Assembly (NCBI GenBank): GCA_045597145.1 | Contig: JAZODU010000042.1 | Coordinates: forward strand, 11,166 to 75,165 | Length of the DNA stretch: 64,000 bases | From: Eubacteriales bacterium | GTDB lineage: Bacteria > Bacillota > Clostridia > Oscillospirales > CAG-272 | Direction of reading: 5' to 3' | In this document: piece by piece, positions 33,760 to 64,000 of the stretch | Layout of the letters: every line of letters starts with the position of its first letter | Position numbering within the stretch: the stretch's first letter is position 1 | The notes under the pieces: model-generated | Databases searched by the model: none | Told to the model about the DNA's origin: nothing | What the model saw: only the letters and a program-made list of their open reading frames with translations | Position numbers and translations under genes: made by a program

Positions 33760-33776
33760 AATATTTTTCCTTTGTT

Positions 33777-33872: not shown

Positions 33873-33883
33873 GAGGTGTTGCT

Positions 33884-35077: not shown

Positions 35078-35089
35078 CCCAAACCCATA

Positions 35090-35128: not shown

Positions 35129-35139
35129 TTTCTCCGTCA

Positions 35140-35257: not shown

Positions 35258-35272
35258 TCGTATCTCGCTCCC

Positions 35273-41186: not shown

Positions 41187-41252
41187 ACACGGACTTCACC
41201 GAAAGGCATTATATAAAAGGAGACAAACCCAATCGATAATGGAGGAAATTGA

Positions 41253-44210: not shown

Positions 44211-44219
44211 TCTAATAAT

Positions 44220-47066: not shown

Positions 47067-47109
47067 TCGAAGAATCAAAAATAATATATACAAAAGGAGG
47101 TTTTTTGAT

Positions 47110-50016
47110 TTGAAAATCAGATTGATTGCAATCGTTCTGTTGCTTACAATGGTTGCTGCCTGCTTCGTGGGCTGTAACAGCGGCAAGGACGATACCACGA
47201 CTAAGAAGCCGACGGTGTCCACACCGGATGAGGATAAGGTTCCCGAAGGGCTTTTGGCACTGGTTGAGAAAAATGCTTCAAAATACCAGATCGTTTACCC
47301 CATGAATTCCGGTGAGTCCGTGCAGGCAATTGCGGAGCAGCTTTCGGGCCTGATTCTGGAAACGACGAACGTTGAGATTCCCGTCGTGCAGGACATCGGT
47401 GTTGGTGTTGCGGAATCCGAGTACGAGATCCGTGTCGGTAAGGTCAGCCGTATGGACGCACTGAGCGTCTGGTCGAGCTACAACCACCTGACCGAGCGCG
47501 ACTTTGCGGTCGAGGTGCACGGAAAACACGTTTACATCTACGGTACTACACAGCTGGCGATCACCACGGCGATGGAGTACTTCATTCAGAAGGTCATTTA
47601 CATGACACCGAATGTCGTGGGCATCAAGAACGACTTCTCGATGCTCTACGTTGAGGAGGCTTGCGAGAACGTGACCTTCACGGGCGCGGATGAGAATTAC
47701 GCGTACCTTACGCTCAATCCCGGTAGGATCTCTGAATCTTACCTGCGCATCAGCTTCAGCGACAACAAGGGCTGGCGTTTGCAGACCAAGAACAACGCGT
47801 CAGCAGAGTTCAATGATTTCGGCGCGTCCCAGAGATTGGCTTACTCGCTTGGCGAGGAGATGCCGCTCAACGTCTATCCCATCACGGCAAGCGTGGAGGG
47901 TGACCGGGTGACCATCCGCGAGGAGGGTGGCACGCACATGGTCATCAATACCGCAAGCTTTGAAATCAACGTTTACAACAGCAAGGGCGAGTGCTCTGCA
48001 ACCATTACGAACATTTCCTCCAACCTCGGCGGCTCCGTGATCGAGGGTAAGGTCAACCCCAACGAAGCGATCTACGGTACGGGTGAGCGCTTCAACGCGG
48101 TCAACCAGAGAGGGCGGAAGATCCACATGTTCACCAAGGACATCTGGTCCCAGTCGGACGCTTGTTACATGGTCATTCCGATGCTTTGCTTCTCCCGCGG
48201 CTCGGGTATCTTCCTCAACATTTACGAGGAGATGAACCTGGAGCTCGGTAAGGCCAACAAGAAGTCGCAGGAGGACATCTGGACGGCAGAGATCAACGGC
48301 ACGACGCTTGACTGCTACATCTTCGCTACCGAGCAGATGAGCGAGGCACTCCTCGGCTACACCGATCTCTCGGGACACGCCGAGATGCCCGAGGAATGGA
48401 CCTACGGTATGATCATCTGCCGCTACGGTCCCGACCTCTCCCAGAAGTGGACGACTTCCATCACGCCCGGTGAAACCAGCGACGGACGCGACATGGGCGT
48501 TTACGAAGCGATCGCTTACCACGAAGCGTACGACCTTCCCTGGACGGCAATCCTTGCCGAGAGCTGGGGTGCGTACACCGAGGATAAATACAAGGATCTC
48601 AGGGAGCTTTGCGATTACACCCACAGCCTGGGCAAAAAGTTCCTCGTGTATATGCGCGTGGGTCTTGCAGACAACTCTATGGGAGGATACTCGCCCGACT
48701 ATCTGGTTCAGATGGTGAAGCCCGACGGCACAACCACCACGCAGCTTCCCGCAGCAGCATCCAATAACCCCGACACGGGCGGAACCGGTGCGGGTGTCAA
48801 GACCTATCCTTACATCGACGTTTCCGACCCCGCGGCCTGCGAGTGGTTCTTCGAGGAGATCTGGTACAAACTTTCGAACGAGATCGGCGTGGACGGATGT
48901 AAGATCGACTTCTGCGAAACCCTTCCCGAGTATTATGAATTGAACTATTACGATGAGAATCTTCCTACGTCCGGTTCTCACCACTGGTATCCCTCCGCAT
49001 TCTGTGCGAAATTCTTTGAAATGATCTCCTCCAAGCCCGACAGCGGCATGTGCTACACGCGCGGCGGCGGTATCGGTGCACAGAGAGCCCCCTACATGTG
49101 GGCGGGCGACCAGTTCCGTAAATGGGAGGCGATCGGCTGGCAGCTGACGGCGGTCCTGTCCTCCGGTATGTCGGGCGTGCCCTTCATGAGCTACGATATG
49201 TCCGGCTACCAGTACGGCAATGCTCCCACGGGCTCGATCGGCGGGTTTACGGTCAAGGATCCTCAGTACGAGGCAAAGGTCTTCGTACGCGGCTTGCAGT
49301 TCACCGCATTCACCATCTGCATGCAGCAGCACGGTAAGGTCAGACAGGCGTTTGACTTCGCCGAGGGTGATATCCACATGGTGGGAATTTACAAAGACGC
49401 TAATGGCACTTATACGACCACGAAGGGGGGGAACACCTTTGTTCGTTGGTGCGCGGCGACCACGGGCGGATTTGACAATAAGACCGGATACTTCAAGGGC
49501 ATCGATCCCGCAACCGGAAAGCTGCAGCCGGGCACGGCGTATAAGTACGTTTACGAGATCCAACCGGGCGAGATGAGCTACGTGACCGATATCTATCGCG
49601 CGTACGTCAAGCTCCACGAGCTGCTCACACCTTACATCACCGAGCTTTCCAAGGAGGCTTGCGAAACGGGTATGCCCGTGGCAAGAATCCTGGCACTCCA
49701 GTGGCAGGATGACGTCAACGTGTACGATATTCAGGACGAATATATGTTCGGTGACGCATTCCTCATCGCTCCCATCCTTGATGACACCTACTCCCGCGAC
49801 ATTTACCTGCCCGAAGGCGAGTGGATCGACCTGATGACGGGTACGGAGTACACGGTAGATGCCGAGGGTATGTGGCTTGAGGATTACAAGGTATCCCTTG
49901 CGGATATGCCCGTGTTCTACAACAAGAATACCACCTCCGCAACCGCGACCGAGCTGCTTTCCGGTATTCAGGAGATTTTTGATTACCTCGATACCATCAA
50001 GCTTCCCGCAGCGTGA
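47110..50016 (+). CDS. GH31 glycoside hydrolase lipoprotein (paralogue 4)
   Basis: TTG start after AAAGGAGG; lipobox FVGC; same GH31 motifs. Confidence 0.9.
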   Translation: MKIRLIAIVLLLTMVAACFVGCNSGKDDTTTKKPTVSTPDEDKVPEGLLALVEKNASKYQIVYPMNSGESVQAIAEQLSGLILETTNVEIPVVQDIGVGVAESEYEIRVGKVSRMDALSVWSSYNHLTERDFAVEVHGKHVYIYGTTQLAITTAMEYFIQKVIYMTPNVVGIKNDFSMLYVEEACENVTFTGADENYAYLTLNPGRISESYLRISFSDNKGWRLQTKNNASAEFNDFGASQRLAYSLGEEMPLNVYPITASVEGDRVTIREEGGTHMVINTASFEINVYNSKGECSATITNISSNLGGSVIEGKVNPNEAIYGTGERFNAVNQRGRKIHMFTKDIWSQSDACYMVIPMLCFSRGSGIFLNIYEEMNLELGKANKKSQEDIWTAEINGTTLDCYIFATEQMSEALLGYTDLSGHAEMPEEWTYGMIICRYGPDLSQKWTTSITPGETSDGRDMGVYEAIAYHEAYDLPWTAILAESWGAYTEDKYKDLRELCDYTHSLGKKFLVYMRVGLADNSMGGYSPDYLVQMVKPDGTTTTQLPAAASNNPDTGGTGAGVKTYPYIDVSDPAACEWFFEEIWYKLSNEIGVDGCKIDFCETLPEYYELNYYDENLPTSGSHHWYPSAFCAKFFEMISSKPDSGMCYTRGGGIGAQRAPYMWAGDQFRKWEAIGWQLTAVLSSGMSGVPFMSYDMSGYQYGNAPTGSIGGFTVKDPQYEAKVFVRGLQFTAFTICMQQHGKVRQAFDFAEGDIHMVGIYKDANGTYTTTKGGNTFVRWCAATTGGFDNKTGYFKGIDPATGKLQPGTAYKYVYEIQPGEMSYVTDIYRAYVKLHELLTPYITELSKEACETGMPVARILALQWQDDVNVYDIQDEYMFGDAFLIAPILDDTYSRDIYLPEGEWIDLMTGTEYTVDAEGMWLEDYKVSLADMPVFYNKNTTSATATELLSGIQEIFDYLDTIKLPAA

Positions 50017-50079
50017 TCGACGGATTCAAACAGAAACCAATTTTTAGGTAAATAAATATACAATGGAGGAATAAAACTC

Positions 50080-51879
50080 ATGAAAAAAGTATTGATTGCA
50101 ATGCTGCTTCTGGCAAGCCTGCTTCTGACCATGACTGCGTGCAACAACGGCGAAACCGACGACACGACTGCCGCGCAAGGGCAGAATGCTGCGGCAAAGA
50201 AGAAAATCACCGTTGAATTTGACAAAAGAGGTGTCGTTGACCCCGAGAAGTACAAGGGTAGAACCGACATTGAGGTCGTGATTATTCCCGAGGGTGCAAA
50301 GACCATCAACAAGGGCACCTTCGAGGGCTGCATCAACCTCAAGGTCGTTAAGTTCTCTTCCACCATGCAGAGCATCGGTGAGGCTTCGTTCAAGAACTGC
50401 GTATCCCTGAAGGAAGTTCACATCGCCAGCGAGCTCAGATTCGTTTCCAATGACGCATTTGAGAATTGCCCCGTTGAGTACGTTGTATTCGACGATTCTA
50501 TGACCACCATCGGCGGTCAGCTCAAGCTGAACAGATTCTCCAAGCTCAAGAAGGTAGACTTCGGCGCAGAGGTTACCAAGATCGATTCCGGTATGTTTGC
50601 AAACTGCCTGTATCTGGAAACCATCGAGCTCCCCTCCACGCTGACCAACCTCGGTAACTTCGCATTCGAGAACTGCACCAACCTCAAGACCGTTGTGCTT
50701 CCCGCAGGTCTTGAAAAGCTGGGTACCAGCGCATTCTCAGGCTGTAAGGCTCTTGCCACCATTGCGATCCCCGAAAACGTGGATTCCATTGGTGCCCAGG
50801 CGTTTATGAACTGCACCGCGCTCAAGACCATCGTGCTTCCCGCAACGATCGACGAGCTTGGCGAATCCATCTTCAAGGGCTGCACCGCGCTTGAGAGCGT
50901 TTCCATGCCCGGCGTAACCAAGATCGGCAACGACGTATTCAAGAACTGCGCTTCCTTGACTACCCTGGGCGATACCTCTGCTCTGACCAGCGTTGGCACT
51001 GAGTGCTTCACCGGTTGCACTTCTCTGGTATCCATCGACGTTTCCGGTCTTACCGCAATTCCCACCAGACTGTTCTACAACTGCGCTTCTCTGGCAACCG
51101 TTACCCTGAACGATAACCTGACCTCGATCGGTGACGAGGCGTTCAGAAACACCGCGATCCTGAGCTTTGAAATTCCCGCAAGCGTGACCGAGATCGGTCT
51201 TGCAACCTTCCAGGGCACCGCTATTTCCGAGATCACTCTTCCCGAGGGCGTTCTTTCCATCGGCGACTACGCATTCAAGGATTGCGAGCAGCTCGCAAGC
51301 GTGATCCTTCCCGAGAGCCTTGAGTCCATCGGTATGTACGCATTCTACAACACGGCACTGACCGAGGTTGTGATTCCCGCAAACGTAACCGAGATCAAGA
51401 CCAACACCTTTGCGTGGTGTGGCGAGCTTGTCAGCGTTGATCTGAACAACGTGACCAAGATCGGCAACGACGCGTTCAAGTCCTGCGCAGTGCTGGCTGA
51501 CGTTGATCCGGGCGCTGTTACCGAGATCGGTGCATTTGCATTCGCAAGATGCGCGGCTCTGACTGAAATGGATCTGACGAATGTTGTGACCATCCGCAAC
51601 GACGCATTCCACGGCTGTGCAAACCTCGCACAGATCACCGTTTCCAACGTACTGAAGCACATCGAGGACAGTGCGTTCTTCGCAGCAGCAACCGCTGATG
51701 GCGTTGAGCTGACCGTTATCGGCGGCGACACCACCGCAGTTGAGCTCTACGGCGTTCTCAACAGCGCGATCGACGGCAAGATCGCCAAGGCTCCGAACTG
51801 CCAGTCCAGACCCGATTTCGACGACATCTATCAGGGCCTGAAGGATTGGAGCAGCGATTACAACGCTCCTGCAAACTAA
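50080..51879 (+). CDS. BspA-type leucine-rich repeat lipoprotein
   Basis: Lipobox MTAC; many IGxxAFxxCxxLxxVxLP repeats. Confidence 0.9.
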   Translation: MKKVLIAMLLLASLLLTMTACNNGETDDTTAAQGQNAAAKKKITVEFDKRGVVDPEKYKGRTDIEVVIIPEGAKTINKGTFEGCINLKVVKFSSTMQSIGEASFKNCVSLKEVHIASELRFVSNDAFENCPVEYVVFDDSMTTIGGQLKLNRFSKLKKVDFGAEVTKIDSGMFANCLYLETIELPSTLTNLGNFAFENCTNLKTVVLPAGLEKLGTSAFSGCKALATIAIPENVDSIGAQAFMNCTALKTIVLPATIDELGESIFKGCTALESVSMPGVTKIGNDVFKNCASLTTLGDTSALTSVGTECFTGCTSLVSIDVSGLTAIPTRLFYNCASLATVTLNDNLTSIGDEAFRNTAILSFEIPASVTEIGLATFQGTAISEITLPEGVLSIGDYAFKDCEQLASVILPESLESIGMYAFYNTALTEVVIPANVTEIKTNTFAWCGELVSVDLNNVTKIGNDAFKSCAVLADVDPGAVTEIGAFAFARCAALTEMDLTNVVTIRNDAFHGCANLAQITVSNVLKHIEDSAFFAAATADGVELTVIGGDTTAVELYGVLNSAIDGKIAKAPNCQSRPDFDDIYQGLKDWSSDYNAPAN

Positions 51880-51951
51880 TTGCCAACGTCTCGCCCTCTC
51901 CCCGCACGCACGGGGAGAGGGAAGCGAAGTCTATAATTTGAAGAAAGAGAG

Positions 51952-54792
51952 ATGACAAAAGTGAAGAAATCTACTTTATCCAAGCTTTTCGCTCTGTTGT
52001 TGGCAGTCATGATGGTCATTCCCATGTTCGTGGCTTGTAAAACGCCCGAGTCTGCGGCACCTGTCGATAACGAGGACGAGGATAAGATCGTCGGCGATTT
52101 TCTCCAACTGGGTGAAAGAGGCTTTACCAGTTTTTCGCTTGTATATTCCGAGGACACGAAGGTCCTGACCAAGACCGAGTGTAAGAATCTGATCGATGAG
52201 ATCAAGAGCGTTACGGGCGCAGCCCTTGCGCTCGTCGAGGACGCATCCCAGAAGACCAAGAGAGAGATCATCGTCGGCGTGATCGGTGAGATCGGCCGTG
52301 ACGATATCGAAAAGGAGGTTGCAAAGTACAACCTCGGTGAGTACGACTACCTCGTTAAGGTATTCGGCAACGACCTGATCATCGCGCTGGGAAGCAATCC
52401 CGTCAGCGTACAGGCGTTTGCGTTCTTGAAGGAAAGACTCCTTTATATTGACAAGGCGAACGAAACCGTTTCGGTTCCCGCGGATCTCGAATACGTTTAC
52501 TATTCCGACAACGCAGAAGACAAGAATGGCATCAAGAAGGTTCGTGCAGACAAGAAGAACCCCACCGAGCTGCTCTTTACCCTGCACCCCGGCTCCGAGC
52601 TGGACGTTTCCTGCCGCCTGACCTACACGGGCAACGGTGGCTGGCGCGTACAGACCAGACATAACATGGCAGTGCCTTTCGGCAATGTTGGCGCAGCACA
52701 GAAGCTGGCGCTTGATCTGGGCGACACGCCTGCAGATCTGCCTCAGACCCTGACCTACTGGGAGGATGACACCAACATCATCGCACAAGCTCCCGACGGC
52801 AGCTACGCCGTATTGAACAAGCTCGACTTCAACATCAAGTTCTGCAACGCAGAGGGCAAGCTGATCCGCACGCTGACGGGGCTCAACCACTCCATCACGG
52901 GTCGTCTTGACACGCTGACTCTGTACGCAAACTTTACCCTCAACGATACCGAGGCGATCTTCGGTACGGGTGAGAGATTCGATTCCGTCAACCGGCGCGG
53001 CAACAAGGTCGTGATCCAGAGCGGCGCGGTTGCCGATACCAAGGATAACTCCAACGTAGCGATCCCGCTGTTCTCCAGCTCCACCGGTTCCGGTATCTTC
53101 GTGAACAGCAACGCGTACATGGTGGCTGACATCGGTGCTACCAAATACAACGAGCTGAACGTCACGCTTAGCGCGGGTGCGCTTGACGTATACGTGTTTA
53201 CCACCGATAAGATCGCAGACGTTCTGAACGCTTACGCGGCGATCAGCGGTTACGCAAAGGCTCCCGAAAACTGGATGAACGGTCTGCTTGTCGTTCGTTA
53301 CGATGCAAACGTGGATACGCTGGAGGCGGTCAAGGAAATGATCGCAAACATGGAGGTTTACGGCACACCCTGGACCGGCATCGTGATCGACGGCTGGGAC
53401 GTTCACGACTTCTCCAAGCACGAGGAGCTCAAGACGGTGTGCGATCTCGTTCACTCCATGGGCAAGAAGATCATCTGCAACGTCGATATCGGCTTCTTCC
53501 CGGGCGCATTCCCCGAGGGCATGTATGAGGACGTAAAGGTCGACAATTTCTATCTGACCTGGACCTTTACCTATTACTACGGCGAGCCGCAGGGAGACGG
53601 TTCCTTCACGACCAGTACCATCAGGACCAACACGACCGCAAATCTCCCGATCGTCGAAGCTGCAGGCTCTATGCTGGAAGCACCTTTGTTTACCGTGGCA
53701 CCCACCGTAAACACCAAGGAGCCTATCAAGAGCGATCCTTTTGCAACCACTATTGAGGGCGGCGACAGAACAAGCAACGCTGACGACTTTACCTACGACA
53801 CCAAGACCTACCTCGACATCACGAATCCTGTGGCTGTTGAGTGGTTCTTCGGCGAGTACTGGACGTATCTGGTAGAGGAGATCGGCTTTGACGGCGCAAA
53901 GGTAGACGGTACAAACCTCCTGCCCGACACGCACGGCACGCTGAACTTCTACGATAAGACCGCTGAAACCGGCGGCGCACGTCAGTGGTACTCCACCTGC
54001 TTTGCAGGTCTTTTGAACAACGTTCTGGCAAAGAAGCCTGACGGCGGTATATGCTTTACCACGGGCGGCGGCATCGGCTCTCAGCGCAATGCCATCGTGG
54101 TGGGCGGCGAGCAGAGCCGTACGACCAACCGTTTGGAAAGACAGATCTCGGGTCTGCTTTCCGCAGGTCTTTCGGGCATGCCCTTCGTATCCTACTACGC
54201 AGGCGGCTCCTTCTACAAGAACGACAACGAGTTGAGCATCGACCAGGAGGTTTCGATCTTCCTGCGCGGTGTCCAGTTCACCGCATTCACGGTCAGCATG
54301 ATGACCGACAGCACCAACGTCAGAGGCGCGTTCGACTTTGTGGCTGAAAACGAGGATTACGCATGCGTGAGCGAGCTTTACAGCCTGTACACAAAGCTGC
54401 ACGACGCAATGGCACCTTACATCGATGAGTACGCAGCAGAAGCAACCGCGAGCGGTATGCCTCTGGCGCGCCATCTGGTTCTGATGTGGCAGAACGACGC
54501 CAACGTTTACAACATTGACGACCAGTACATGTTCGGTGACGCGTTCCTCGTAGCACCCGAGCTTTACGGCGAAGGCACGAGAACCGTTTATCTGCCCGAG
54601 GGTACTTGGCTTGACCTTATCACCGGCGAGACCTACGTTGTGGGTGCGGGCGGCGATACGGTCGAGTGCAACGTGACCTTGGCGCAGATTCCCGTGTTCT
54701 ACAACGTGAACACCACCTCTAAAACAGCTGCGGGCATCCTTGACGATGTCACCCTGATCCTCGATCAGATCAACGCGGTTGAGCTTCCTTAA
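51952..54792 (+). CDS. Divergent GH31 lipoprotein (paralogue 5), altered catalytic motifs
   Basis: Lipobox FVAC; DGAKVDGTN and VVGGEQ in place of DGCKIDFCE and WAGDQ. Confidence 0.85.
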   Translation: MTKVKKSTLSKLFALLLAVMMVIPMFVACKTPESAAPVDNEDEDKIVGDFLQLGERGFTSFSLVYSEDTKVLTKTECKNLIDEIKSVTGAALALVEDASQKTKREIIVGVIGEIGRDDIEKEVAKYNLGEYDYLVKVFGNDLIIALGSNPVSVQAFAFLKERLLYIDKANETVSVPADLEYVYYSDNAEDKNGIKKVRADKKNPTELLFTLHPGSELDVSCRLTYTGNGGWRVQTRHNMAVPFGNVGAAQKLALDLGDTPADLPQTLTYWEDDTNIIAQAPDGSYAVLNKLDFNIKFCNAEGKLIRTLTGLNHSITGRLDTLTLYANFTLNDTEAIFGTGERFDSVNRRGNKVVIQSGAVADTKDNSNVAIPLFSSSTGSGIFVNSNAYMVADIGATKYNELNVTLSAGALDVYVFTTDKIADVLNAYAAISGYAKAPENWMNGLLVVRYDANVDTLEAVKEMIANMEVYGTPWTGIVIDGWDVHDFSKHEELKTVCDLVHSMGKKIICNVDIGFFPGAFPEGMYEDVKVDNFYLTWTFTYYYGEPQGDGSFTTSTIRTNTTANLPIVEAAGSMLEAPLFTVAPTVNTKEPIKSDPFATTIEGGDRTSNADDFTYDTKTYLDITNPVAVEWFFGEYWTYLVEEIGFDGAKVDGTNLLPDTHGTLNFYDKTAETGGARQWYSTCFAGLLNNVLAKKPDGGICFTTGGGIGSQRNAIVVGGEQSRTTNRLERQISGLLSAGLSGMPFVSYYAGGSFYKNDNELSIDQEVSIFLRGVQFTAFTVSMMTDSTNVRGAFDFVAENEDYACVSELYSLYTKLHDAMAPYIDEYAAEATASGMPLARHLVLMWQNDANVYNIDDQYMFGDAFLVAPELYGEGTRTVYLPEGTWLDLITGETYVVGAGGDTVECNVTLAQIPVFYNVNTTSKTAAGILDDVTLILDQINAVELP

Positions 54793-54802
54793 TTAAATAG
54801 GA

Positions 54803-54920
54803 GGGATTTCGTGGGGGACGCTTCTTTCGGGAAGCTTCCCCGCGCCCCTTTCAAGAGCTTTCACCAAACGGGAATAGGGATCTCCATTGGGCGCGCGACA
54901 CAGTGCGCCCTTTTTGCGTG
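54803..54920 (+). repeat. Family A repeat with terminator
   Basis: CCCCTTTCAAGAGCTTTCACC...GGGCGCGC-gacaca-GTGCGCCC-TTTTT. Confidence 0.7.
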
Positions 54921-55090
54921 CCTGCGCGGTGTTCCATAGGTGCTCCCGAAGAGAGCGAAGCGACAGAACGTTAGCCTCCCGCTCCGCGAGATTACGGTCA
55001 ACGCCGCGCGGGGCGGGGCAGGGGGCAAAGTTGGAAGAGACTGGTTAATGTGCACAAAAAGAAGATGCGTTTTTTGTGACTTTTTGAAAC

Positions 55091-55119
55091 TTGACAAAGG
55101 TGTTTTGATGCGGTATAAT
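55091..55119 (+). promoter_or_regulatory. Consensus sigma-A promoter
   Basis: TTGACA-17-TATAAT. Confidence 0.8.
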
Positions 55120-55220
55120 ATAGTAGACCTATAACGCTCTGTTCTGTTCGGGGCGGTAGGAATGGCGAGGGGAAAAACACCCTCCAATCCTTCAAAAAAT
55201 TTAAAAAGGAGAGAAAGAAC

Positions 55221-56750
55221 ATGAAAAACATCATCAAAATTGCTGTGCTTCTCTTGGCTCTGCTGATGATCGTTCCCTGTCTGGCGGCTTGTAACAAGGG
55301 CGGCGGTGGGGACACGACTGCTCCTCGGAACCCCGGCGGAGAAGTTGAGGATCCTTATCTGGAGCCCGTAGACCTGAAGCGCTACGAGTACAAGGCGTTT
55401 GTGCGCAGCCAGGCCACCGGTAACAAGGCTTTTTACTGCGAGGACTTCTGGGTTGACCCTGCTACCGGCGGTGCTGATGCACTGTCTTTCGCGGTTATCG
55501 CAAGAAACAGCGAGATCGAGCAAACCTACAACTGCAAGATCACGCAGGTGTGGTCCACGCAGGAAGACTCTTTCGTTGAAATGCGCGGCTTGTTCAATAC
55601 CAACCAGTTGTATGAGCTGACCATTATGATGGCGATTGACGCAGCAAACTGCGCAACCGCAGGCTACCTGTCCAACATCAAGAACGATCTGAACCAGACC
55701 TACATCAACCTCGATCACGAGGCGTTTGACCAGAACTCCATCGAGCAGCTGACTCTCGGCGATAGCCTTTACTACATCAGCGGCGACATGAACATCTCCG
55801 CTCTGGACAACACCATTTCCACCATCGTCAACGTCAACGACTATTACGATATCGCTGAGGAGCTGGCAATCACCTTTGACGACAGCGATTTCGAGAGTCC
55901 CTACACCCTCGTTGAGGAGGGCAAGTGGACCGTTGAGAACATGCTCAAGATCGCAGGTGAGTACACGATGGACGCAAACACCAACGACGGAGAACTGAGC
56001 TACGATAAGGAAGACCTGATCGGTTACTTCGTGTATCAGGCGTCTCCTCTGTACTACTACTACGGTGCAGGCATGCGTATCACCGATAACATTGGCGGCT
56101 ATCCTCAGTTCATGATCGACACCGACGAGGCTTCCGAGGTTTACGACTACCTGTTCGATAAACTGAACCTTGAAGCAAACAACCTTCCCGGCGGTAATTC
56201 CAATAAGCGTTCCCAGAACTTCCAGAGCGGTCAGGTTCTGTTCGCGGACTACATCCTTTGGGACGTTCGTCGCGTGCTCTACTCCGCTGATATCGACTTC
56301 GCATACGGTATCCTTCCCATTCCTACCATTGAGGAGAACGAGGATTACCACAGCGTTCTGTACTTCCAGAACTGCGCACACCTGTGGGCACTTCCCTACA
56401 AGCGTGCTGAGGCTGACAAGGCAGCTCGTATGATGTACGTCATGACCGTATACTCCGGTATGGATGACTCCACTCTGGACGCATACTACATGAGAACCAT
56501 GTACATGGAGGTTGCTAAGGACGACGGTTCCCGTGCATCCCTCGAGATCATTCGTCACTCTCTGGTTTACGATATCGCACTTCTGTACTGCCCTACCGAC
56601 AAGTGGGGTAGATTCGATGAGCTTCTCGTCGACATCGATGTCAGAAAGGTTAAGGAGTTTGCAACCTACACCTCCGAGTCCCGTATGCAGGCCGCTCAGG
56701 ACGAGATGAACGATACGATCGACCTGTTCATCAAGTTCGGAGCAGACTGA
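55221..56750 (+). CDS. Extracellular solute-binding lipoprotein (ABC type), orphan
   Basis: Lipobox LAAC; RNSEIEQTYNCKI, LVEEGKWT, YGILPIP, SLEII pattern typical of clostridial sugar-binding proteins. Confidence 0.75.
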   Translation: MKNIIKIAVLLLALLMIVPCLAACNKGGGGDTTAPRNPGGEVEDPYLEPVDLKRYEYKAFVRSQATGNKAFYCEDFWVDPATGGADALSFAVIARNSEIEQTYNCKITQVWSTQEDSFVEMRGLFNTNQLYELTIMMAIDAANCATAGYLSNIKNDLNQTYINLDHEAFDQNSIEQLTLGDSLYYISGDMNISALDNTISTIVNVNDYYDIAEELAITFDDSDFESPYTLVEEGKWTVENMLKIAGEYTMDANTNDGELSYDKEDLIGYFVYQASPLYYYYGAGMRITDNIGGYPQFMIDTDEASEVYDYLFDKLNLEANNLPGGNSNKRSQNFQSGQVLFADYILWDVRRVLYSADIDFAYGILPIPTIEENEDYHSVLYFQNCAHLWALPYKRAEADKAARMMYVMTVYSGMDDSTLDAYYMRTMYMEVAKDDGSRASLEIIRHSLVYDIALLYCPTDKWGRFDELLVDIDVRKVKEFATYTSESRMQAAQDEMNDTIDLFIKFGAD

Positions 56751-57269: not shown

Positions 57270-60200
57270 ATGAAGAAAAACAAATTATTTCTCGGGATCG
57301 CGAGCGTTGTTGCACTGGTGCTCCTGATCCCTGCGCTCATCATTCCTTCGATCGGCGCCGGGACGCAGACGCTGTCTGCAAGAAATTATGGGTTTAACAA
57401 TCAGGCGATCGGATCCACGAGTACGGCACTGAAGGATGCTTACGACGGTACGACGACGTATCCTACTACCGCAACGATCGCGGCGAACCCCGCAAACCCG
57501 AACTCCTCGGACCGCGTTCTTCGCATCGACAGTAAGACCGTTGATACGGGCAAGGTTGCCGAGTTTATCGCCGTCGGCACGTATGCTTACGAGGTTATCT
57601 GGGATGACGCGTCGAAGGCTACGGGTACGGCGAAGTACAATAACAAGACGCTTACGCTCACGAGCACCGACGGCGGTAAGACCGTTGTGGCTTCGGACAG
57701 TAAAACGTATACCGTTTCTACCGATGCTGCCCTGAGAGAGGCGGTCGGCGGCGGTAGCAACGTCGACAAAAACGTAACGGTCGGTAACGTTAAGATGAGC
57801 TATAGCGAGCTTGCGAACCCGACGGTGGTTTTGCAGGCAGAGTACTATATCCCCACGGGTGCTCTGGGAACCTTTGAAAGCCAGATCGTCAAGTACTCTA
57901 CGAACGGCACCGCCAAAACTTACCTGAACCTGTTCAAGATCAATCTTGGTACGGGAGCGATTAGCTCGGGTGATATCCTTGGCTCTGACGATAAGGTGGG
58001 TTCTTTCACGCTTGAAAAAGATGTGTGGAACACCGTTTCCGTTGTAGTCAATCTGGAAACCGGTGCAGCTGAACTTTACATCAACAACATTCTGGTGTTC
58101 GGTGGTCGGTTTAGCATCGGTGGCACGGTTTTGACGAACCTCGTGTTCGATGAGGGTAACTGGAACATTGCAAAGCTGAACAAGCAGAGCAGCCTCGGCA
58201 ACTTCGGCGGCTGCTTCTACGTCAATAACGCCAGATACCACAGCTATGACGCCACCAAGAAGATCGATCTTTCTTCGGGTTCCGATCTGTTGTACACCGA
58301 GGTGACGCTGGCTTCCGGCCGTAAGGTTGGCGCAAGCTCCGGCGATACGATTCTCGCCAATATCGACGTGGTATATCAAAACGTGCGTGTGGCGGATTAT
58401 GCAGACATGATCGCCCCCGTTGAGGGTGCATCGCTCCGTCTGACCAACACCAGCGGTCTGCGCTTTGCAACGCAGATCAACACGGCCATGATGAACGAGC
58501 TGGTTGCGGCAAAGGCGGCAGGTCACATTAAAAACGTAGAGATCGGTACGCTGATCACGCCTTACGCATACGTGACCGAGGCGGGCAACTTCACGATTGA
58601 CGCGCTCAAGACGCTGTCGTATTCCGCAAAATACCTCGACGTTAAGGCAACCGTCGGCGGCTACTTCAACCCCCCCGGTCTTACCCCGTCTGAGGGCTAC
58701 AACACCTTCTTCGTCGGTTCTATTATCGACATCAAGCCCGCAAACCGTAACCGCTTGTTCACGGGCATGGGCTACGTGAAGGTTACGCAGAACAACGGCA
58801 CTGTCAGATATATCTACAGCTACGATTACAACAATGCTACCACGCAGGAAAGCAAGTATTCCAGAAGCATTTCCTACATCGCATCCGTGTTCGTGAACGA
58901 TCCTGATTTCTCGCAGTATCAGGAGCTTCTGCAGAGCTTCGTGCAGGGCATGACGGTTCCTGCACTCTCCAGCTCGATTATCCAGAACGTACAGTACTCC
59001 TACAACGAGTTCTTCTTCCAGAACGCAGCGGGTGTTGCGTGCCAGCTCATTTACGACGGCAACAACGGCTGGCGTCTGCAGGCGGTCAAGCCCACGCAGA
59101 CCAACAGCAAGTACAACGAGTTTGACAACATGGGCGCGGCGCAGGCTCTGTCCCAGTATCTGGGTGAGGAGCACGACGATAAGGCGATGAAGCTGATCGT
59201 TACCAATGACAGCTCCAAGTTCACCATTCGCGCAGAGGGAACCGATTCCTACGTGACGCTGAACATCACCGGCTCCTTCAACCTCCGGTTCTTCTCGCCC
59301 AAGGGCGTTCTGATGAACAACGTCACCGCCATCACTGCTAGCGGAACAAGTGATAAGGATAAAAGCATTAAGCTGACGGGTGACCTTTTGACGGGCGAGG
59401 CAATCTACGGCGGCGGTGAGAGATTTGATGCGGCAAACAAGCGCGGCAAGTCTATGTCGCTCTATTCCTACGACGCATACAACTCCGGTGTTCCCGGTAC
59501 CGCCAACGAGGCGGGTACTTACACCGTTATCCCGCTGTTCACCTCCTCCAGAGGTAGCGGTATGTACATCAACCGTTACGAGATCATGACCGCGGACTGG
59601 GGCGAGACCTCCTCCAACCAGTGGTCTGTTACCATTCAGAACGACCTGATCGACTGCTATTTCTACTCCACGGGTAACATGGCAGACGCGATCTACGGTT
59701 ACACCGACCTTGCAGGTCACGCAACCCTGCCCGAGGAATGGGCACAGGGGGTTCTGATCTGCCGTTACAGCCCCGACTTCACCGGCCTCAACGGCGAGAA
59801 GATGTATTTCGACAAGCTGGAGGACATTCCCGGATACGAGACGCTGACACTCTCCAGCGGCGGTGATCCGGCTACCACCAAGACCTCTTGGACAAAGGGC
59901 GACAAGCTCTATTCGGGTAGCTCCATCAAGTATATTTACGCAGATTACGACTTTGACGGTGACTACGAATTCGTTCGTACCTCCAAGAAGGGCGGCGCTC
60001 CCATGGGTGCGGGCGTTAAGGCGATCGTTGAAGGACTGATCGACGCCGGCATGAAGCCCACCGCAATGGTGCTGGAGGGACTCGGCTGGACCAGCCTTGG
60101 TACCAACTCGTCGCAGTACGCTAATTTCGTTGAGGTCATCAACTGGCTCGAGGAGCGTGACATCAACACCACGATTTACATGGCAGTTGGTGAAATCGGC

Positions 60201-61529
60201 TCCGGCATGCCCGGCTATAAGGCGGAATATCAGCTGAAGGCAAACGTGACCTACTCTCTGGACTATGGGAACGGTGACTCCGATGGATGGGGGGGTACCT
60301 ATCATCATGAGTTTACAGCGGGCACGCAGACCACGACCAAGATCCCGAAGAATGCAGGTTCCGACAACCCCGATGCAGTCGGCACGGGCACGCAGACCTA
60401 CCTTGATATCACCAACCCCGAGGCAGTGGATTGGTACATGGACGTCGTTTGGGGTCAGCTCATTGAGCTTGGCGTTGACGGCTGTAAGATAGACTTCTGC
60501 GAAACCATGCCCAACGAGGGCTTTACCTTCGATCTGGTCGGAACCAAAACGAGTTGGCTTACCGGAACCACGAGTGTGAAGGTTGGTACGGCAACGCTGG
60601 AATACCAGTGGTACGATGACACCGTCTTTGAGGGCGACGACGTTCACCACGCATACTCCTCTTACTTTATCTCGCTCTTCTGCCAGAGAATGTTGGAGAA
60701 GGCTCCCGAGGGCTTTGTCGTACTGAACCGCGGCGGCGGTATCGGTATGCAGCGTAACCCCTACATGTGGGCGGGCGACCAGACGCGTGAGGAGATTACG
60801 CTTACCACGCAGCTGATGGTAGTGCTCAACTCGGGTATTTCGGGTCTGCCCTTCATGACCTACGATATGGCAGGTTATGCTTACGGCGCCGAGCCCGACA
60901 ACTATTGGAACGGCACGTGGGATGCGGCAGGCGCAGAGGCTGCAAAGAAAACCGAGTCCGAGATCTTCATTCGTGCGATCCAGTACACGGCGTTCAGCCT
61001 GATGATCCAGACGCACGGTGACGTTCGTCACTTGTACGATCTGAGCGAGGAAGCACAGACCATTTCCGCACAGTACACGGCACTCCACGACGAGCTGATG
61101 CCTTACATCCGGAAGTATTCGCAGATCGCGTGCGAAACGGGTCTGCCCGTGCTGCGTCTGTTGGTTCTGCACTACCAGAACGATACCAATGTATACGATA
61201 TCAACGACCAGTATATGTTCGGTGACGGACTGATGGTAGCACCTATTCTGGAGCTGGGCTCTACGTCCAGAACCGTTTACCTGCCCGAGGGTAACTGGAT
61301 TGACCTCTTGACGGGTAAGGAATACAGCGTCGGTGCGAACGGTCAGACCATTACCGTGACCGCGAAGCTCAACCAGATTCCCGTATTCCTGAATGCGGAT
61401 TCCGATGACGCACATGAGCTTGCTCCGATCTTCAACGGCTCGATCTGGCAGAAGATCAACGGCGGACACAAGATTCGTGATTTCTACACGGACGACCCCG
61501 CACAGGACGATATCTTCGGTAAAAAATAA
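57270..61529 (+). CDS. Large secreted multidomain GH31 (paralogue 6, 1419 aa)
   Basis: Signal peptide without lipobox; lectin-like beta region (WNTVSVVVNL); GASLR/GLRF domain; DGCKIDFCE, WAGDQ; start at ATG after GAAAGGG. Confidence 0.88.
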   Translation: MKKNKLFLGIASVVALVLLIPALIIPSIGAGTQTLSARNYGFNNQAIGSTSTALKDAYDGTTTYPTTATIAANPANPNSSDRVLRIDSKTVDTGKVAEFIAVGTYAYEVIWDDASKATGTAKYNNKTLTLTSTDGGKTVVASDSKTYTVSTDAALREAVGGGSNVDKNVTVGNVKMSYSELANPTVVLQAEYYIPTGALGTFESQIVKYSTNGTAKTYLNLFKINLGTGAISSGDILGSDDKVGSFTLEKDVWNTVSVVVNLETGAAELYINNILVFGGRFSIGGTVLTNLVFDEGNWNIAKLNKQSSLGNFGGCFYVNNARYHSYDATKKIDLSSGSDLLYTEVTLASGRKVGASSGDTILANIDVVYQNVRVADYADMIAPVEGASLRLTNTSGLRFATQINTAMMNELVAAKAAGHIKNVEIGTLITPYAYVTEAGNFTIDALKTLSYSAKYLDVKATVGGYFNPPGLTPSEGYNTFFVGSIIDIKPANRNRLFTGMGYVKVTQNNGTVRYIYSYDYNNATTQESKYSRSISYIASVFVNDPDFSQYQELLQSFVQGMTVPALSSSIIQNVQYSYNEFFFQNAAGVACQLIYDGNNGWRLQAVKPTQTNSKYNEFDNMGAAQALSQYLGEEHDDKAMKLIVTNDSSKFTIRAEGTDSYVTLNITGSFNLRFFSPKGVLMNNVTAITASGTSDKDKSIKLTGDLLTGEAIYGGGERFDAANKRGKSMSLYSYDAYNSGVPGTANEAGTYTVIPLFTSSRGSGMYINRYEIMTADWGETSSNQWSVTIQNDLIDCYFYSTGNMADAIYGYTDLAGHATLPEEWAQGVLICRYSPDFTGLNGEKMYFDKLEDIPGYETLTLSSGGDPATTKTSWTKGDKLYSGSSIKYIYADYDFDGDYEFVRTSKKGGAPMGAGVKAIVEGLIDAGMKPTAMVLEGLGWTSLGTNSSQYANFVEVINWLEERDINTTIYMAVGEIGSGMPGYKAEYQLKANVTYSLDYGNGDSDGWGGTYHHEFTAGTQTTTKIPKNAGSDNPDAVGTGTQTYLDITNPEAVDWYMDVVWGQLIELGVDGCKIDFCETMPNEGFTFDLVGTKTSWLTGTTSVKVGTATLEYQWYDDTVFEGDDVHHAYSSYFISLFCQRMLEKAPEGFVVLNRGGGIGMQRNPYMWAGDQTREEITLTTQLMVVLNSGISGLPFMTYDMAGYAYGAEPDNYWNGTWDAAGAEAAKKTESEIFIRAIQYTAFSLMIQTHGDVRHLYDLSEEAQTISAQYTALHDELMPYIRKYSQIACETGLPVLRLLVLHYQNDTNVYDINDQYMFGDGLMVAPILELGSTSRTVYLPEGNWIDLLTGKEYSVGANGQTITVTAKLNQIPVFLNADSDDAHELAPIFNGSIWQKINGGHKIRDFYTDDPAQDDIFGKK

Positions 61530-61593
61530 CTGACAACGGCGGAGGCGGTTGGGAACAGCCGCTTCCGCTCACAAAGAAAAGGAGTATTTGGTG

Positions 61594-61896
61594 ATGCTGA
61601 AACGAATTCTTACGGCGCTCCTCGCGGGGATCTTGCTGCTTTCGCTTTGTGCGTGCCAAGGCTTTGAGAACGAAACGACCACGACCACGGCAGATGGCGG
61701 CGGATCGCCCGATCCTGATCCCGATCCTGATCCTGATCCTGATCCCGATCCTGATCCCGATCCCGATCCCGATCCCGAGCCCGAGCCTGACCCTGACCCT
61801 GACCCTGATCCCGATCCCGATCCCGATCCCGGTTCCGAACCGGATCCCGAGCCCGAGCCTGACCCTGATCCCGATCCATGGACGCCGTGGGTTTAA
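61594..61896 (+). CDS. Small Pro-Asp repeat lipoprotein ending in WTPWV
   Basis: SD AAGGAG; lipobox LCAC; T-run followed by a (PD/PE)n stalk. Confidence 0.8.
   Translation: MLKRILTALLAGILLLSLCACQGFENETTTTTADGGGSPDPDPDPDPDPDPDPDPDPDPDPEPEPDPDPDPDPDPDPDPGSEPDPEPEPDPDPDPWTPWV
61708..61878 (+). repeat. Coding hexamer tandem repeat (CCN GAY/GAG)
   Basis: Encodes PDPDPD...PEPEPD. Confidence 0.9.
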
Positions 61897-61920
61897 AAAA
61901 GTAAAAAAACGGAGCTTTTT

Positions 61921-62025
61921 ATGAAATTGATGTATGAAGAGCCGCAGGCAGAGATCATTCGCCTGGCAGACGAGGACGTTTTGAGGACCTCCGACGAGGA
62001 GGACTACTGGACGCCGTTCGTTTGA
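61921..62025 (+). CDS. 34-aa peptide MKLMYEEPQAEIIRLADEDVLRTSDEEDYWTPFV
   Basis: Manual translation (below the ORF-track cutoff); SD CGGAG; followed by a hairpin; tail matches the upstream gene's tail. Confidence 0.75.
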   Translation: MKLMYEEPQAEIIRLADEDVLRTSDEEDYWTPFV

Positions 62026-62039
62026 GAATAAACGAGCAA

Positions 62040-62077
62040 CACGGGGAGAAAACCTTTTGAACGGTTTTCTCCCCGTG
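62040..62077 (+). terminator. Hairpin related to family A; likely terminator
   Basis: CACGGGGAGAAAACC-ttttgaac-GGTTTTCTCCCCGTG followed by TTT. Confidence 0.7.
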
Positions 62078-62253
62078 TTTCATCTCCTACCCCCAAAAAG
62101 GGGGACGGAGAGGGCGGCTCGGCAGGGGCAGTATGTTCCACTAACCCGTAGGGCGGGTGCTTGTCCCAGCCGTATTTATTAGGTGTTGTGAACAATTTTT
62201 GCGGCGGCTTTTGTGGCAAATTGCCAAAAAAATGGGGCAGGACGGAATTTTAC

Positions 62254-62282
62254 TTGACAAAGTGGGGCAAAAAGGGTATAAT
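62254..62282 (+). promoter_or_regulatory. Consensus sigma-A promoter
   Basis: TTGACA-17-TATAAT. Confidence 0.8.
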
Positions 62283-62335
62283 TAAACTATATCGAGAAAA
62301 ATCTCAGAAATTTCACATAAAAGGAGATTGATTCC

Positions 62336-62584
62336 ATGAAAAACGTTATGACGAAATGCCTGGTTCTCCTGCTTGTTCTTTGCATGGCAGTTATGATCGT
62401 TGCCTGCAACGGCGGCGAGGGCGACACGACGAAGGAAAAGGGCACGACGCAAGGCCCCGGTCCGATTGTTCCCGACGGCGAGCCGACCACCGGCGGCGGT
62501 AGCAGCGATGTTACGCCCGATCCTCTTGATCCGCTTCCCGGGGGTGACCCCAACCGCGATCCCGGTAAGCCTGATCCGTTCTGA
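62336..62584 (+). CDS. 82-aa disordered lipoprotein ending in DPGKPDPF
   Basis: SD AAAGGAG; lipobox IVAC; G/P/T/D-rich body. Confidence 0.78.
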   Translation: MKNVMTKCLVLLLVLCMAVMIVACNGGEGDTTKEKGTTQGPGPIVPDGEPTTGGGSSDVTPDPLDPLPGGDPNRDPGKPDPF

Positions 62585-62655
62585 TTTTGATCTTATATGC
62601 GCCGAGCCACAGAGCTGTGGCTCGGCGCGTGTTGCTTTTAGGAAGGAGATTCATT

Positions 62656-64000
62656 GTGAAAAAACATATTTTGCGCGCGCTTTCCGCCGTGCTGATACTT
62701 GCCATCACGATCCCGATGCCGCTGCTCTGCGCGTCTGCGGACGCGGTCAGCGTGGGCGGCGAGATGGTCAATGTTGGCGACGGCGAGGCGCAGGTAACGC
62801 TCGGTGCGGCTGACGCAAAGCTGCTGTACACAACCGTGACGCTCGCTGACGGCACACGCTACACCACCGCAGACACGGCGATCGACACGCAGGAGGATAT
62901 GCAGATCGACGCGAAATACGTCAAGCTCGCAACCCTCACCTCTCCCGAGGCGCGCCTCTGCATGCCGCTGGGGCTTCGCTACGTAACCGCGCTTTCTGCC
63001 GCAGACTATGCGGCACTGGCGGCTGACGAGAGCGTCAAGGAGATCCGCGTGGGCACGCTGATTGCCCCCGAGGAGACCGTGCGCCGCGTGGGCGGCATGA
63101 CCAAGGTGCTGCTTGCGGACGAGGTCTATATCGACGTTCCCGCAACGGCGGGCATGTGGTATGACGAGAGTGATGACACCGTGTTCTTCGCGGGCTCGAT
63201 CGTGGATATCAAGGAAGAGCATTACAACCTTGCGCTCGTGGGCGTAGGCTACGTTGAGGTCGAGCTGGAGGACGGCTCGGTCTACACGGTCTACGGCGCA
63301 CAGTCGGACGACCTGATCGCTTCCGGCATCGCAACGGAGGCGAAGATCACGCTGCGCGACGCGACGCTCGACAAGTCCGAGCAATACTACATGAACGTCT
63401 TTGCAGACGCATTTGACGGCGACATGGAAATGCTTTACAATCGTGATTTTACAGGGCTGAACGTGCTGGCTATCGGTGATAACCTGTTCAGCGGCGCGTT
63501 CGAAACGATCGGCGACAAGGTTTGGGTCAACCTGCTGGGCAAAAAATACGGCTGGAATCTGACCAACCTCGGCATCAGCGGCGCGGCGGTTTCTTACGAC
63601 TCCGACCGCACGGCGACCAATGCCTCGATGTACGGGCTGCTGATGAACGACGCAGACTACAAGTTCGGTTCGCCCTCCTACTACAACGCAGGCAACCCCT
63701 CGGGCAACCCCGAGGACGTGGATCTGATCCTGCTTGAGGGCGGCAGCAACGACTACGATCCGAAGGTGGGCGCGCCGCAGGGCACGGTTGCTTCTACGGA
63801 TCCCGCAGATTTTCTTGGCGCGTGGCGGCTGATGACCGATGAGCTGCTCCACCGATACCCCAACGCGACGATCGTGTTTGTGACCGCGTGGGAGAACGTC
63901 AACCAGACGCGCGAGGACGGCGCGAATTCGATCATTTACACCTCCGCGGTCAAGAATCTGTATAGATATGCGTACAAAAACAATGCGCGCGTCTATATGA
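62656..64000 (+). CDS. Secreted protein with GLRF-type domain plus SGNH/GDSL-fold domain (partial, runs off window)
   Basis: Manual translation from GTG after AGGAAGGAG: MKKHILRALSAVLILA...; LGLRY, RVGTLI, FFAGSIVDI; VLAIGDNL, NLGISG, EGGSND. Confidence 0.85.
   Translation, partial: MKKHILRALSAVLILAITIPMPLLCASADAVSVGGEMVNVGDGEAQVTLGAADAKLLYTTVTLADGTRYTTADTAIDTQEDMQIDAKYVKLATLTSPEARLCMPLGLRYVTALSAADYAALAADESVKEIRVGTLIAPEETVRRVGGMTKVLLADEVYIDVPATAGMWYDESDDTVFFAGSIVDIKEEHYNLALVGVGYVEVELEDGSVYTVYGAQSDDLIASGIATEAKITLRDATLDKSEQYYMNVFADAFDGDMEMLYNRDFTGLNVLAIGDNLFSGAFETIGDKVWVNLLGKKYGWNLTNLGISGAAVSYDSDRTATNASMYGLLMNDADYKFGSPSYYNAGNPSGNPEDVDLILLEGGSNDYDPKVGAPQGTVASTDPADFLGAWRLMTDELLHRYPNATIVFVTAWENVNQTREDGANSIIYTSAVKNLYRYAYKNNARVYM

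Follow-up and report, generated by a model that had tools for sequence, protein, structure and literature searches.

Short C-terminal tags shared by secreted enzymes, tiny stalk lipoproteins and a putative linear polyphosphorylated peptide precursor in a surface glycan-degrading locus of a gut Clostridia genome

Why should four consecutive genes for otherwise unrelated proteins end in two shared, paired peptide motifs? The question is raised by positions 57,270 to 64,000 of a 64,000-nucleotide stretch of DNA (the window) from Eubacteriales bacterium (assembly GCA_045597145.1, contig JAZODU010000042.1, positions 11,166 to 75,165 of the forward strand), a gut Clostridia metagenome-assembled genome (MAG) of ~2 Mb (1.9 Mb, 75 contigs, 92% complete; G000 in the following). 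Positions 57,270 to 64,000 form the far end of a locus for glycan degradation at the cell surface, which comprises an array of GH31 lipoproteins, a BspA-type leucine-rich repeat (LRR) lipoprotein, a big secreted GH31 protein and SGNH esterases. A preliminary description, made from the sequence alone, had noticed the paired motifs and had proposed that membrane-anchored stalks present short peptide ligands which tether or sort secreted enzymes. The observation was confirmed in the present analysis, and the tethering interpretation was partly supported.

Two classes of tag were distinguished, D-P-x3-D-[I/x]-F (class 1) and W-[TS]-P-[WF]-V at the carboxyl end (class 2), and all four genes lie on the plus strand. 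Class 1 ends the secreted, non-lipidated GH31 glycoside hydrolase (1419 aa, 57270..61529, ATG start), where it was read from the translation as DDPAQDDIFGKK at the C-terminus (61491..61526), and a tiny lipoprotein of 82 aa (62336..62584), the translation of which ends in RDPGKPDPF (62555-62581). Class 2 ends a PD/PE-repeat stalk lipoprotein of 100 aa (61594..61896; end DPWTPWV, with WTPWV translated from 61879-61893) and the adjacent 34-aa open reading frame (ORF; 61921..62025; end DYWTPFV, with the tag at 62008-62022), which has GGAG 9 nt upstream of its ATG. Both tiny lipoproteins consist of an anchor, a disordered spacer and the tag, as had been described and as was read again in the two sequences: the stalk has a signal peptide with the lipobox LCAC (...LLLSLCAC followed by QG) and ~66 residues of (PD)/(PE) repeats, and the 82-aa protein (lipoprotein 2) has the lipobox IVAC (...AVMIVAC followed by NG) and a disordered spacer of G, P, T and D. 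In Pfam and NCBIfam the stalk gave low-complexity matches only (Trypan_PARP, TonB), and no family was found for the 82-aa protein beyond matches of that kind.

As a background for the tags, every ORF of 25 aa or more in the 1.9-Mb genome was taken (23,193 in total). A C-terminal W-T-P-x-V was present in two of these, the stalk lipoprotein and the adjacent 34-aa ORF, and D-P-x3-D-[IP]-F at most four residues from the end was likewise present in two, the GH31 protein and the 82-aa lipoprotein. The big secreted GH31 has clear orthologues (56-72% identical) within the genus, and the tags are kept at the orthologous loci in up to five other species. W-[TS]-P-W-V ends all five stalk lipoproteins (G000, G005, G022, G081, G087), the stalks between anchor and tag being not alignable, and W-[TS]-P-[WF]-V ends all five small peptides (G000, G005, G022, G065, G087). 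Regarding lipoprotein 2, the eight homologues considered all end in D-P-x3-D-x-F (with I at the x position in three of the eight); beyond the genomes listed below, three database homologues end in DPG..D.F. Among the big GH31 orthologues, D-P-x3-D-I-F was seen in 4/6; G081 has SDIF only and G087 has DPTEDDLL. Ends of orthologues include DDPYGEDIF, DDPWGEDIF and EDPFDSDIFATE. Given in the order GH31, stalk, peptide and lipoprotein 2, the ends are DDPYGEDIF, RPDWSPWV, NAWSPWV and DPSKNDIFE in G005; DDPWGEDIF, MTWTPWV, NAWTPWV and DPAGSDIFD in G022; and DPTEDDLLWKEY, PEWTPWV, DVWTPFV and DPGAADQF in G087. In G065 they are DPFDSDIFATE, EMWSPWV and DPGKDDIFPAA, with no stalk seen, and in G081 they are SKSDIFDD and HPWTPWV, with neither peptide nor lipoprotein 2 seen. 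The tags are thus real, conserved and modular, and go beyond chance, and the conservation in homologues on which the preliminary description had hung its proposal was found. An island DPLP[EG]G is also kept in the otherwise variable spacer of lipoprotein 2 (window 62480-62530) in G000, G005, G022, G087 and four other database homologues; it may be a further motif.

The paired class-2 tags resemble each other in DNA as well as in protein, and this is what a functionless by-product of local duplication or conversion of neighbouring gene ends would leave behind. The two DNA strings quoted in the preliminary description were located at 61879-61896 and 62008-62025, and in four genomes (window, G005, G022 and G087) lipoprotein and peptide use the same synonymous codons for W-[TS]-P within a genome and different ones between genomes (Thr/Ser-Pro codon pairs ACG CCG, ACT CCT, TCT CCT and ACA CCG). 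A degenerate DNA pattern of class 2 gave 25 matches in 78 genomes versus 10 for the reversed control, and paired matches were confined to the GH31 locus of four genomes. The matched codons may reflect conversion of one gene end by the other or a constraint that acts on the RNA. As an explanation of the tags themselves, however, such a by-product is highly improbable: the shared stretch measures only 15-18 nt, the tags outlast species divergence where their flanks are unalignable, they are found on non-neighbouring carriers at other loci and, among unrelated proteins of other sources that carry the domain described below, in 13 of 150, and the head of the peptide family is under purifying selection.

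Three unrelated kinds of carrier bear the tags, namely secreted enzymes, lipid-anchored disordered or proline-rich stalks, and small peptides with a conserved 23-residue head. Away from the GH31 locus, class 2 ends an SGNH enzyme of G028 that carries the shared domain discussed below (...NRSGWTPFV) and a large surface protein of G005 on contig C160 (...DGYWTPWV), which is followed by a precursor peptide of another class. The stalk lipoprotein of G005 has an internal GEGEDIFG in addition to its terminal WSPWV. Shared 5-mers between stalks and peptide cores numbered 10, compared with 3.2 +/- 1.9 after shuffling, a modest excess that at least one of 500 shuffles reached, and the similarly modest count of shared 6-mers was 2 versus 0.28. 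Two side observations concern small carriers. The stalks of G005 and G022 (L055, L056) contain an island GDND[AT]PFGG, which resembles a third class of precursor core (GDNDAPF..., SGDNDAPFISVGG...) that includes the peptide on contig C24 of G000, and a very small lipoprotein-like ORF on contig C25 of G000 (39489-39704) has a disordered P/E/T-rich body and ends in ...EPDGTKRY, with no recognised tag.

The 34-aa ORF belongs to a family. Scanning the genome with a motif revealed three paralogues in the same genome (contigs C49, C60 and C24), and a database profile search gave 37 homologues of 33-51 aa, all nameless and devoid of a Pfam domain; in the protein atlas the family appears only as clusters of 'hypothetical protein', an NCBIfam scan of the head peptides gave no family at meaningful E-values, and a full-text literature search for the head heptapeptides gave no match. 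The head is near constant (M-K-x-Y-x-E-P-x3-L-L-x-L-x2-E-D-V-L-T-x-S) and the tail variable. Tyr, one Asp and Ser are invariant in the alignment of 37 members, and Pro is conserved in at least 90%. With 11-30 aa the cores are short; they are acidic and have an aromatic end. Of the 36 genomes of the genus, 26 contain the head family, in up to 15 copies, and 24 other families of the order yielded no more than two matches, both weak. At the loci examined, the peptide gene lies 20-40 nt behind the gene of a large secreted protein on the same strand. A search for the head fused to larger proteins gave a single match, in which the ORF of a normal precursor had been called too long. Large secreted proteins encoded 5' of head peptides in many cases end in (A/L)(L/M)Y-x-Y-x2-AA-x2-Y or ...FAAYAN, a helix-like end motif (seen at L010, L019, L021, L026, L030, L033 and L058 and at C49 and C60 of G000) which may be part of the system.

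Differing codons of the head were synonymous in 110 cases and non-synonymous in 64 (174 in total; 47/37/138 by codon position). Since synonymous changes dominate, the head is translated and, as a peptide, subject to purifying selection, and its interpretation as a DNA repeat or mobile cassette was rejected. Export by a double-glycine/C39 system was rejected as well, as no match to PF03412 was obtained in the genome (92% complete). The Y-x-x-P head resembles lasso-type leaders, and for this reason recognition elements were looked for. A lasso peptide itself was rejected on account of the best PF13471 (B2) match, which at E 0.017 is below the cut-off, and of the length of the core; the window core SDEEDYWTPFV has no Asp or Glu at positions 7-9.

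The 34-aa ORF is best filed as a precursor of a peptide that is ribosomally synthesized and then modified post-translationally (RiPP), of the linear polyphosphorylated peptide (LPP) type, that is, as a probable new member of a known family. LPPs have been defined as a group of RiPPs in Bacillota (Popov et al., Nat Commun 2026; PMC13381572). According to the main text of that paper, their precursors comprise 35-200 aa, with the leader logo YxxPxVLxHQxIxFETxxS, an RRE (RiPP recognition element)-binding motif [Y/W]xxPx[L/V/I/F/A] and a conserved Ser at core position 3; their clusters are often embedded in polysaccharide loci, their role is called unknown by the authors, and the inheritance of their genes is patchy and conflict-like (PMC13381572). 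The assignment rests on homology and gene context, i.e. on the leader and on a maturation cassette. Regarding the leader (MKLMYEEPQAEIIRLADEDVLRT), the window peptide matches the RRE-binding motif (Y5-E-E-P8-Q-A10), and in the family a Thr stands one or two residues before the invariant Ser (EDVLT-x-S or EDVIRTS). The predicted cores include SDEEDYWTPFV for the window peptide and SDPGESDIFGDEEEEI.

Regarding the cassette, contig C64 of the same genome (9098-10527, minus strand, outside the window) encodes a 233-aa P-loop protein resembling ScmC and HprK, an 88-aa PqqD-type RRE protein and a 150-aa peptidase similar to signal peptidase I (SpI). The PqqD protein is the only one in the genome (E 1.3e-17 in one search, Pfam E 5.7e-18 in another), and its nearest relatives in the PDB are the lasso B1 proteins TfuB1 and TbiB1. 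For the 150-aa protein, models of signal peptidase I gave matches (TIGR02228, E 1.6e-5, below its cut-off), and Ser28, His68 and Asp83 are present (counted by hand). RRE, SpI-like peptidase and kinase-like gene are encoded together, in an order kept in 11 of 11 further loci of the genus. In G020 (C191) and in G055 (C9), the latter from another family of the order, the cassette directly follows a head peptide, and in G055 a stalk lipoprotein ending in VELPFVPFD is placed between the two. Presence of the peptide and of the kinase-like gene agrees in 31 of 36 genomes, with 24 having both, seven neither and five being discordant (24/2/3/7; Fisher p 4e-4, for genomes that are related and incomplete and kin that are not independent). 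The C64 cassette is likely to serve the maturation of each of the four head peptides that the genome encodes. The proposal of a free processed peptide was therefore right in kind: it has the leader of a RiPP precursor, and the genome has a cassette of RRE, peptidase and kinase-like protein that, in two other genomes, adjoins precursors of this kind. On contig C65, apart from the cassette, there is an NTP_transf_5 gene (E 1.4e-43). Its neighbours (27167-32272) appear, from their N-termini, to be cytidylyltransferase-, flippase- and LicD-like, which echoes the polysaccharide context of the LPPs.

Three observations make the filing under LPP less firm. The spacing of the leader is off the published logo (14 residues from Pro to Thr instead of 12, and Ser at +1/+2 instead of +3), the P-loop protein is ScmC-like at E 0.005 only and has no Pfam or PDB match, so that its assignment as a kinase is putative, and precursor and cassette are situated on different contigs in this genome.

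Since the role of the LPPs is called unknown in the paper and their inheritance patchy and conflict-like, the peptides might be signalling or antagonistic RiPPs, the cores of which mimic the tails of the producer's own surface proteins in order to report on, or disturb, the display of enzymes in kin or competitors; the tails of the proteins would then serve folding or stability. The short (11-30 aa), acidic, aromatic-ended cores fit such a use. The stalk lipoproteins, however, are composed of anchor, spacer and tag only, so that a role in folding or stability would have nothing to act on, and no receptor or sensor gene was found linked to the peptides; this explanation is considered improbable.

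A candidate for the partner of the tags is a domain that the non-lipidated secreted enzymes of the locus have in common. As had been described beforehand, an unannotated segment of the GH31 protein recurs in the SGNH enzyme: residues ~522-698 of the long GH31 ORF match residues ~113-264 of the SGNH protein (blastp E 9e-15; segment of ~160 residues). The GH31 copy (58392..58922, plus strand, residues 522-698) scored E 1.5e-55 with a hidden Markov model (HMM) of the domain, and the copy at the N-terminus of the SGNH enzyme (62923-63378, plus strand) scored E 8.4e-52. Two very large surface proteins encoded on other contigs end with this segment as well (blastp E 1e-9 to 1e-16), and eight proteins of the genome carry it. 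With a profile built from 11 copies, the number of representative clusters matched was 3,878 at E<=1e-3 and still 1,752 at E<=1e-10. In ten sampled proteins the domain is combined with SGNH, GH31, DUF4838, Endonuclease_1 or LamG modules, and no Pfam model covers it either in these ten or in the proteins of the locus. The structures predicted by AlphaFold2 are beta-sandwiches with helices (pLDDT 79 for the GH31 copy and 93-97 for a second protein, P0113). Foldseek searches of the PDB with the two models returned generic Ig-like sandwiches only (TM 0.15-0.38) and no fold match at TM >0.4; with the first model there was no hit at E<=0.001, and with the second a single one (5fx8_U, E 5.2e-4, TM 0.15), which is no fold match.

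The class-1 tag is tightly coupled to this domain, both within a polypeptide and between neighbouring genes, as the co-occurrence expected in the preliminary description would have it. Within polypeptides, a tail of the form DP.{2,4}[DE].F (e.g. KDPFDYDIF, RDPYLEDIFG, AVKDPYKQDIF) was present in 13 of the 150 best representatives of the domain but, of the 23,193 ORFs of this genome, in only four, among them the GH31 protein and a precursor. Between genes, a class-1 core was found in eight of eight precursors located behind a domain-bearing gene, against none of 20 other precursors (a count from which three loci missed by the regular expression were dropped and window-type loci were left out); the cores concerned include SDPGESDIFG..., SDNYESDIFG..., SDPTGDDIFD... 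and SQDDPYGDDCFG.... Further loci, from records labelled as Eubacteriales or Clostridia MAGs, agree in seven of seven cases, two of which duplicate earlier loci. In some lineages the tag thus follows the last helix of the domain in cis, and in others it is supplied by the next gene, on an LPP leader. In the window itself, the class-1 lipoprotein is encoded directly 5' of the SGNH enzyme that starts with the shared domain.

The explanation preferred, tentatively and at somewhat less than even confidence, is that the tags are short linear docking motifs at the cell surface and that the shared domain is the receptor of class 1. The tags would be presented at the surface by anchors and would hold secreted enzymes there. 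One of these anchors would be a lipid with a rigid (PD)n stalk; since the stalk lipoprotein consists of lipid, (PD)n rod and five residues, it can hardly do anything but present these residues off the membrane. The other may be the phosphorylated, possibly glycosylated, N-terminus of an LPP core. In this scheme the PqqD-type recognition element would bind the YxxP leader and, by analogy with LppA, the invariant Ser beside the leader would be phosphorylated, the leader cut at the conserved Thr and a core of ~11 residues (S-DEED-YWTPFV) exported. Such a core would be built like the stalk lipoprotein, with a modified N-terminal Ser, an acidic spacer and the tag. The shared beta-sandwich would act as class-1 receptor, from which the placement of tagged peptides and of lipoprotein 2 beside domain-bearing enzymes would follow, and the GH31 protein, having both the domain and a class-1 tag, could bridge further enzymes.

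Several points weigh against this explanation. The tag motifs were defined post hoc from the data, and related genomes are not independent samples. For class 2 there is no candidate receptor, and the last 521 aa of the tagged surface protein on contig C160 of G005 contain no copy of the domain. The peptide has no signal peptide, so that its extracellular location is an assumption. No class-1 tail is found on 137 of the 150 domain representatives, and three of the eight domain proteins of the genome have neither a tag nor a tagged neighbour. In the AlphaFold2 model of P0113, which has domain and tag in cis, the domain is predicted with pLDDT 93-97 and the tag with 31-46, and the tag is not placed on the domain. 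A complex prediction for the C-terminal domain region of a 1162-aa surface protein and the 38-aa precursor encoded downstream gave scores of 0.72, 0.01 and 0.02 and is evidence neither way. Both the binding of tag to domain and the role of the tags as docking ligands are what we infer.

In the chief competing explanation, the tags would be address labels read by another common partner, such as the LRR lipoprotein, an S-layer or wall polymer or a processing enzyme, with the enzymes as cargo and the stalks and LPP cores as competitors or place-holders that tune hold and release. The cis model, which does not put the tag on the domain, agrees with this, as does the fact that enzymes, stalks and peptides all bear the tag itself, a pattern of many ligands for one receptor. 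Class-2 carriers mostly have no domain in cis, and a candidate partner is at hand in the BspA-type LRR lipoprotein (50080-51879; LRR_5, E 1.1e-116), which is encoded 5 kb upstream of the tagged genes in the same gene array. A common partner leaves unexplained, however, why class-1 precursors occur only behind domain genes (8/8 vs 0/20; 7/7), and why those upstream proteins have no tail of their own while their relatives bear it in cis; a partner other than the domain is regarded as rather unlikely.

Taken one step further, docking of class 1 by the shared domain leads to a broader conjecture that appears doubtful. LPP-type RiPPs may be surface docking tags anchored through a polyphosphorylated, possibly glycan-linked N-terminal Ser, and the tiny lipoproteins their counterparts anchored through a lipid and a rigid stalk; both would show the same motifs of 5-8 residues and recruit secreted glycoside hydrolases and esterases through a beta-sandwich receptor domain not described before, which would amount to a cellulosome-like assembly made of linear motifs and a ribosomal natural product, with no use of cohesins or dockerins.

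The sharing of tags over three kinds of carrier is the new part of these results, the 34-aa peptide belonging to a family published in 2026; for tag sharing among RiPP cores, stalk lipoproteins and enzymes, and for the tag-coupled domain, no counterpart was found in the main text of the LPP paper or in the literature searched. What LPPs do can now be asked as a concrete question of binding, for which both the peptides and a candidate receptor domain can be named. The analysis also defines an accessory domain of secreted enzymes that is widespread (3,878 representative clusters) and has no Pfam model. The locus points to a possible way, independent of cohesins and sortases, of retaining glycan-degrading enzymes on the surface of gut Clostridia.

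Regarding the remaining features of the region, membership of the big secreted protein in GH31 was borne out by Pfam matches to the TIM barrel (PF01055, Glyco_hydro_31_2nd, E 1.4e-29) and to both flanking beta domains (PF21365, Glyco_hydro_31_3rd, E 4.1e-25; PF13802, Gal_mutarotas_2, E 2.3e-11). Its N-terminus (MKKNKLFLGIASVVALVLL) has no lipobox, and its N-terminal extension holds the shared domain. The peptide gene is followed by a hairpin with a 17-bp stem (62038..62079; put on the minus strand by the scan, the stem being palindromic), which is likely to be the end of the transcript of GH31, lipoprotein and peptide. A promoter-like TTGACA-17-TATAAT sequence (62254..62282, plus strand, 12/12 match) precedes lipoprotein 2. 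With the hairpin behind the 34-aa ORF and the perfect promoter before lipoprotein 2, it appears that GH31, the stalk lipoprotein and the peptide are transcribed as a unit and that a separate unit begins with lipoprotein 2. The secreted double SGNH/GDSL hydrolase that follows (786 aa, plus strand) extends from a probable GTG start at 62657 (start and ribosome-binding site read by eye) to the end of the window at 64000 and on to 64947; Pfam matches were Lipase_GDSL_2 (E 1.4e-18) and Lipase_GDSL. Just beyond the end of the window, a 480-aa SGNH protein is encoded, the third secreted enzyme with the shared domain.

Upstream of the tagged genes (window 38697-56750) are four GH31 lipoprotein paralogues, two of which were scanned with Pfam, a fragment, the BspA-type LRR lipoprotein and a 509-aa protein that belongs to no family. 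The gene fragment, at 38.7-39.4 kb, is apparently split across two frames. Within the genus GH31 has expanded strongly, to as many as 20 matches in a single genome. Further upstream, the GC content is 0.42-0.47 at ~32000-36000 versus ~0.55 around it; an ORF at 33884-35077, beginning MKLVDLFAGCGGMSLGF, is presumably a cytosine-5 DNA methyltransferase, and this low-GC region may be an acquired restriction-modification island.

The closest known system is that of the LPPs. As far as the main text of the LPP paper describes them, the two have in common a small precursor with an N-terminal leader containing Y-x-x-P-x-[hydrophobic], a junction with Thr and Ser, here at a different spacing, and a variable core, a discrete PqqD-type RRE beside an SpI-like serine peptidase and a P-loop kinase-like gene, and an NTP_transf_5 gene in a polysaccharide locus, as the one here appears to be (PMC13381572). 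They differ in the host, here a Clostridia gut MAG, whereas no Clostridia appear in the published main text (the supplementary lists may include Clostridia or scattered precursors), and in gene organisation, with 1-15 scattered precursors per genome, each behind a large secreted protein, and one three-gene cassette in trans. The cores are only 11-30 aa long here, the stretch of the leader from Pro to Thr is two residues longer, the phosphorylation is putative, and the cores share their tags with lipoproteins and enzymes, a kind of sharing that is not described in the main text.

Lasso peptides of the paeninodin type likewise have a [Y/W]xxP leader, a discrete B1 RRE and accessory genes for HprK-like and NTP-transferase proteins. 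The genome, in contrast, contains no B2 transglutaminase-like protease above the Pfam cut-off, its peptidase is SpI-like, and since the 11-residue window core is acidic only at positions 2-5, a 7-9-membered lactam ring with a threaded tail is impossible.

Sorting signals of the LPXTG/sortase, exosortase and archaeosortase CTERM types are similar in being short conserved C-terminal motifs on many unrelated surface proteins. LPXTG and CTERM signals are characterised by a hydrophobic helix and a basic tail. No such helix or tail follows the motifs described here, class 2 is the very end of the chain, and the same motif also ends RiPP precursors made in the cytoplasm. The (PD)n/(PE)n run of the stalk is reminiscent of the proline-rich repeats of the TonB (EP/KP) and procyclin (EP) spacers, repeats of a type that form extended rods; the rod of the stalk differs in that its two ends bear a lipid anchor and a five-residue tag and that neither bears a folded domain.

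The likeness to cohesin-dockerin systems drawn in the preliminary description holds for the logic and not for the parts, as no dockerin or cohesin Pfam model matched any of the 14 locus and paralogue proteins scanned. The proposed logic is the same in that secreted glycan-degrading enzymes would be held on anchored scaffolds by modular, interchangeable recognition elements, and the stalk of G005 with its two different tags recalls a scaffoldin with several cohesins. The proposed ligand is a linear motif of 5-8 residues in place of a 70-aa Ca-binding dockerin, and the candidate receptor is an unrelated beta-sandwich carried by the enzyme instead of the scaffold.

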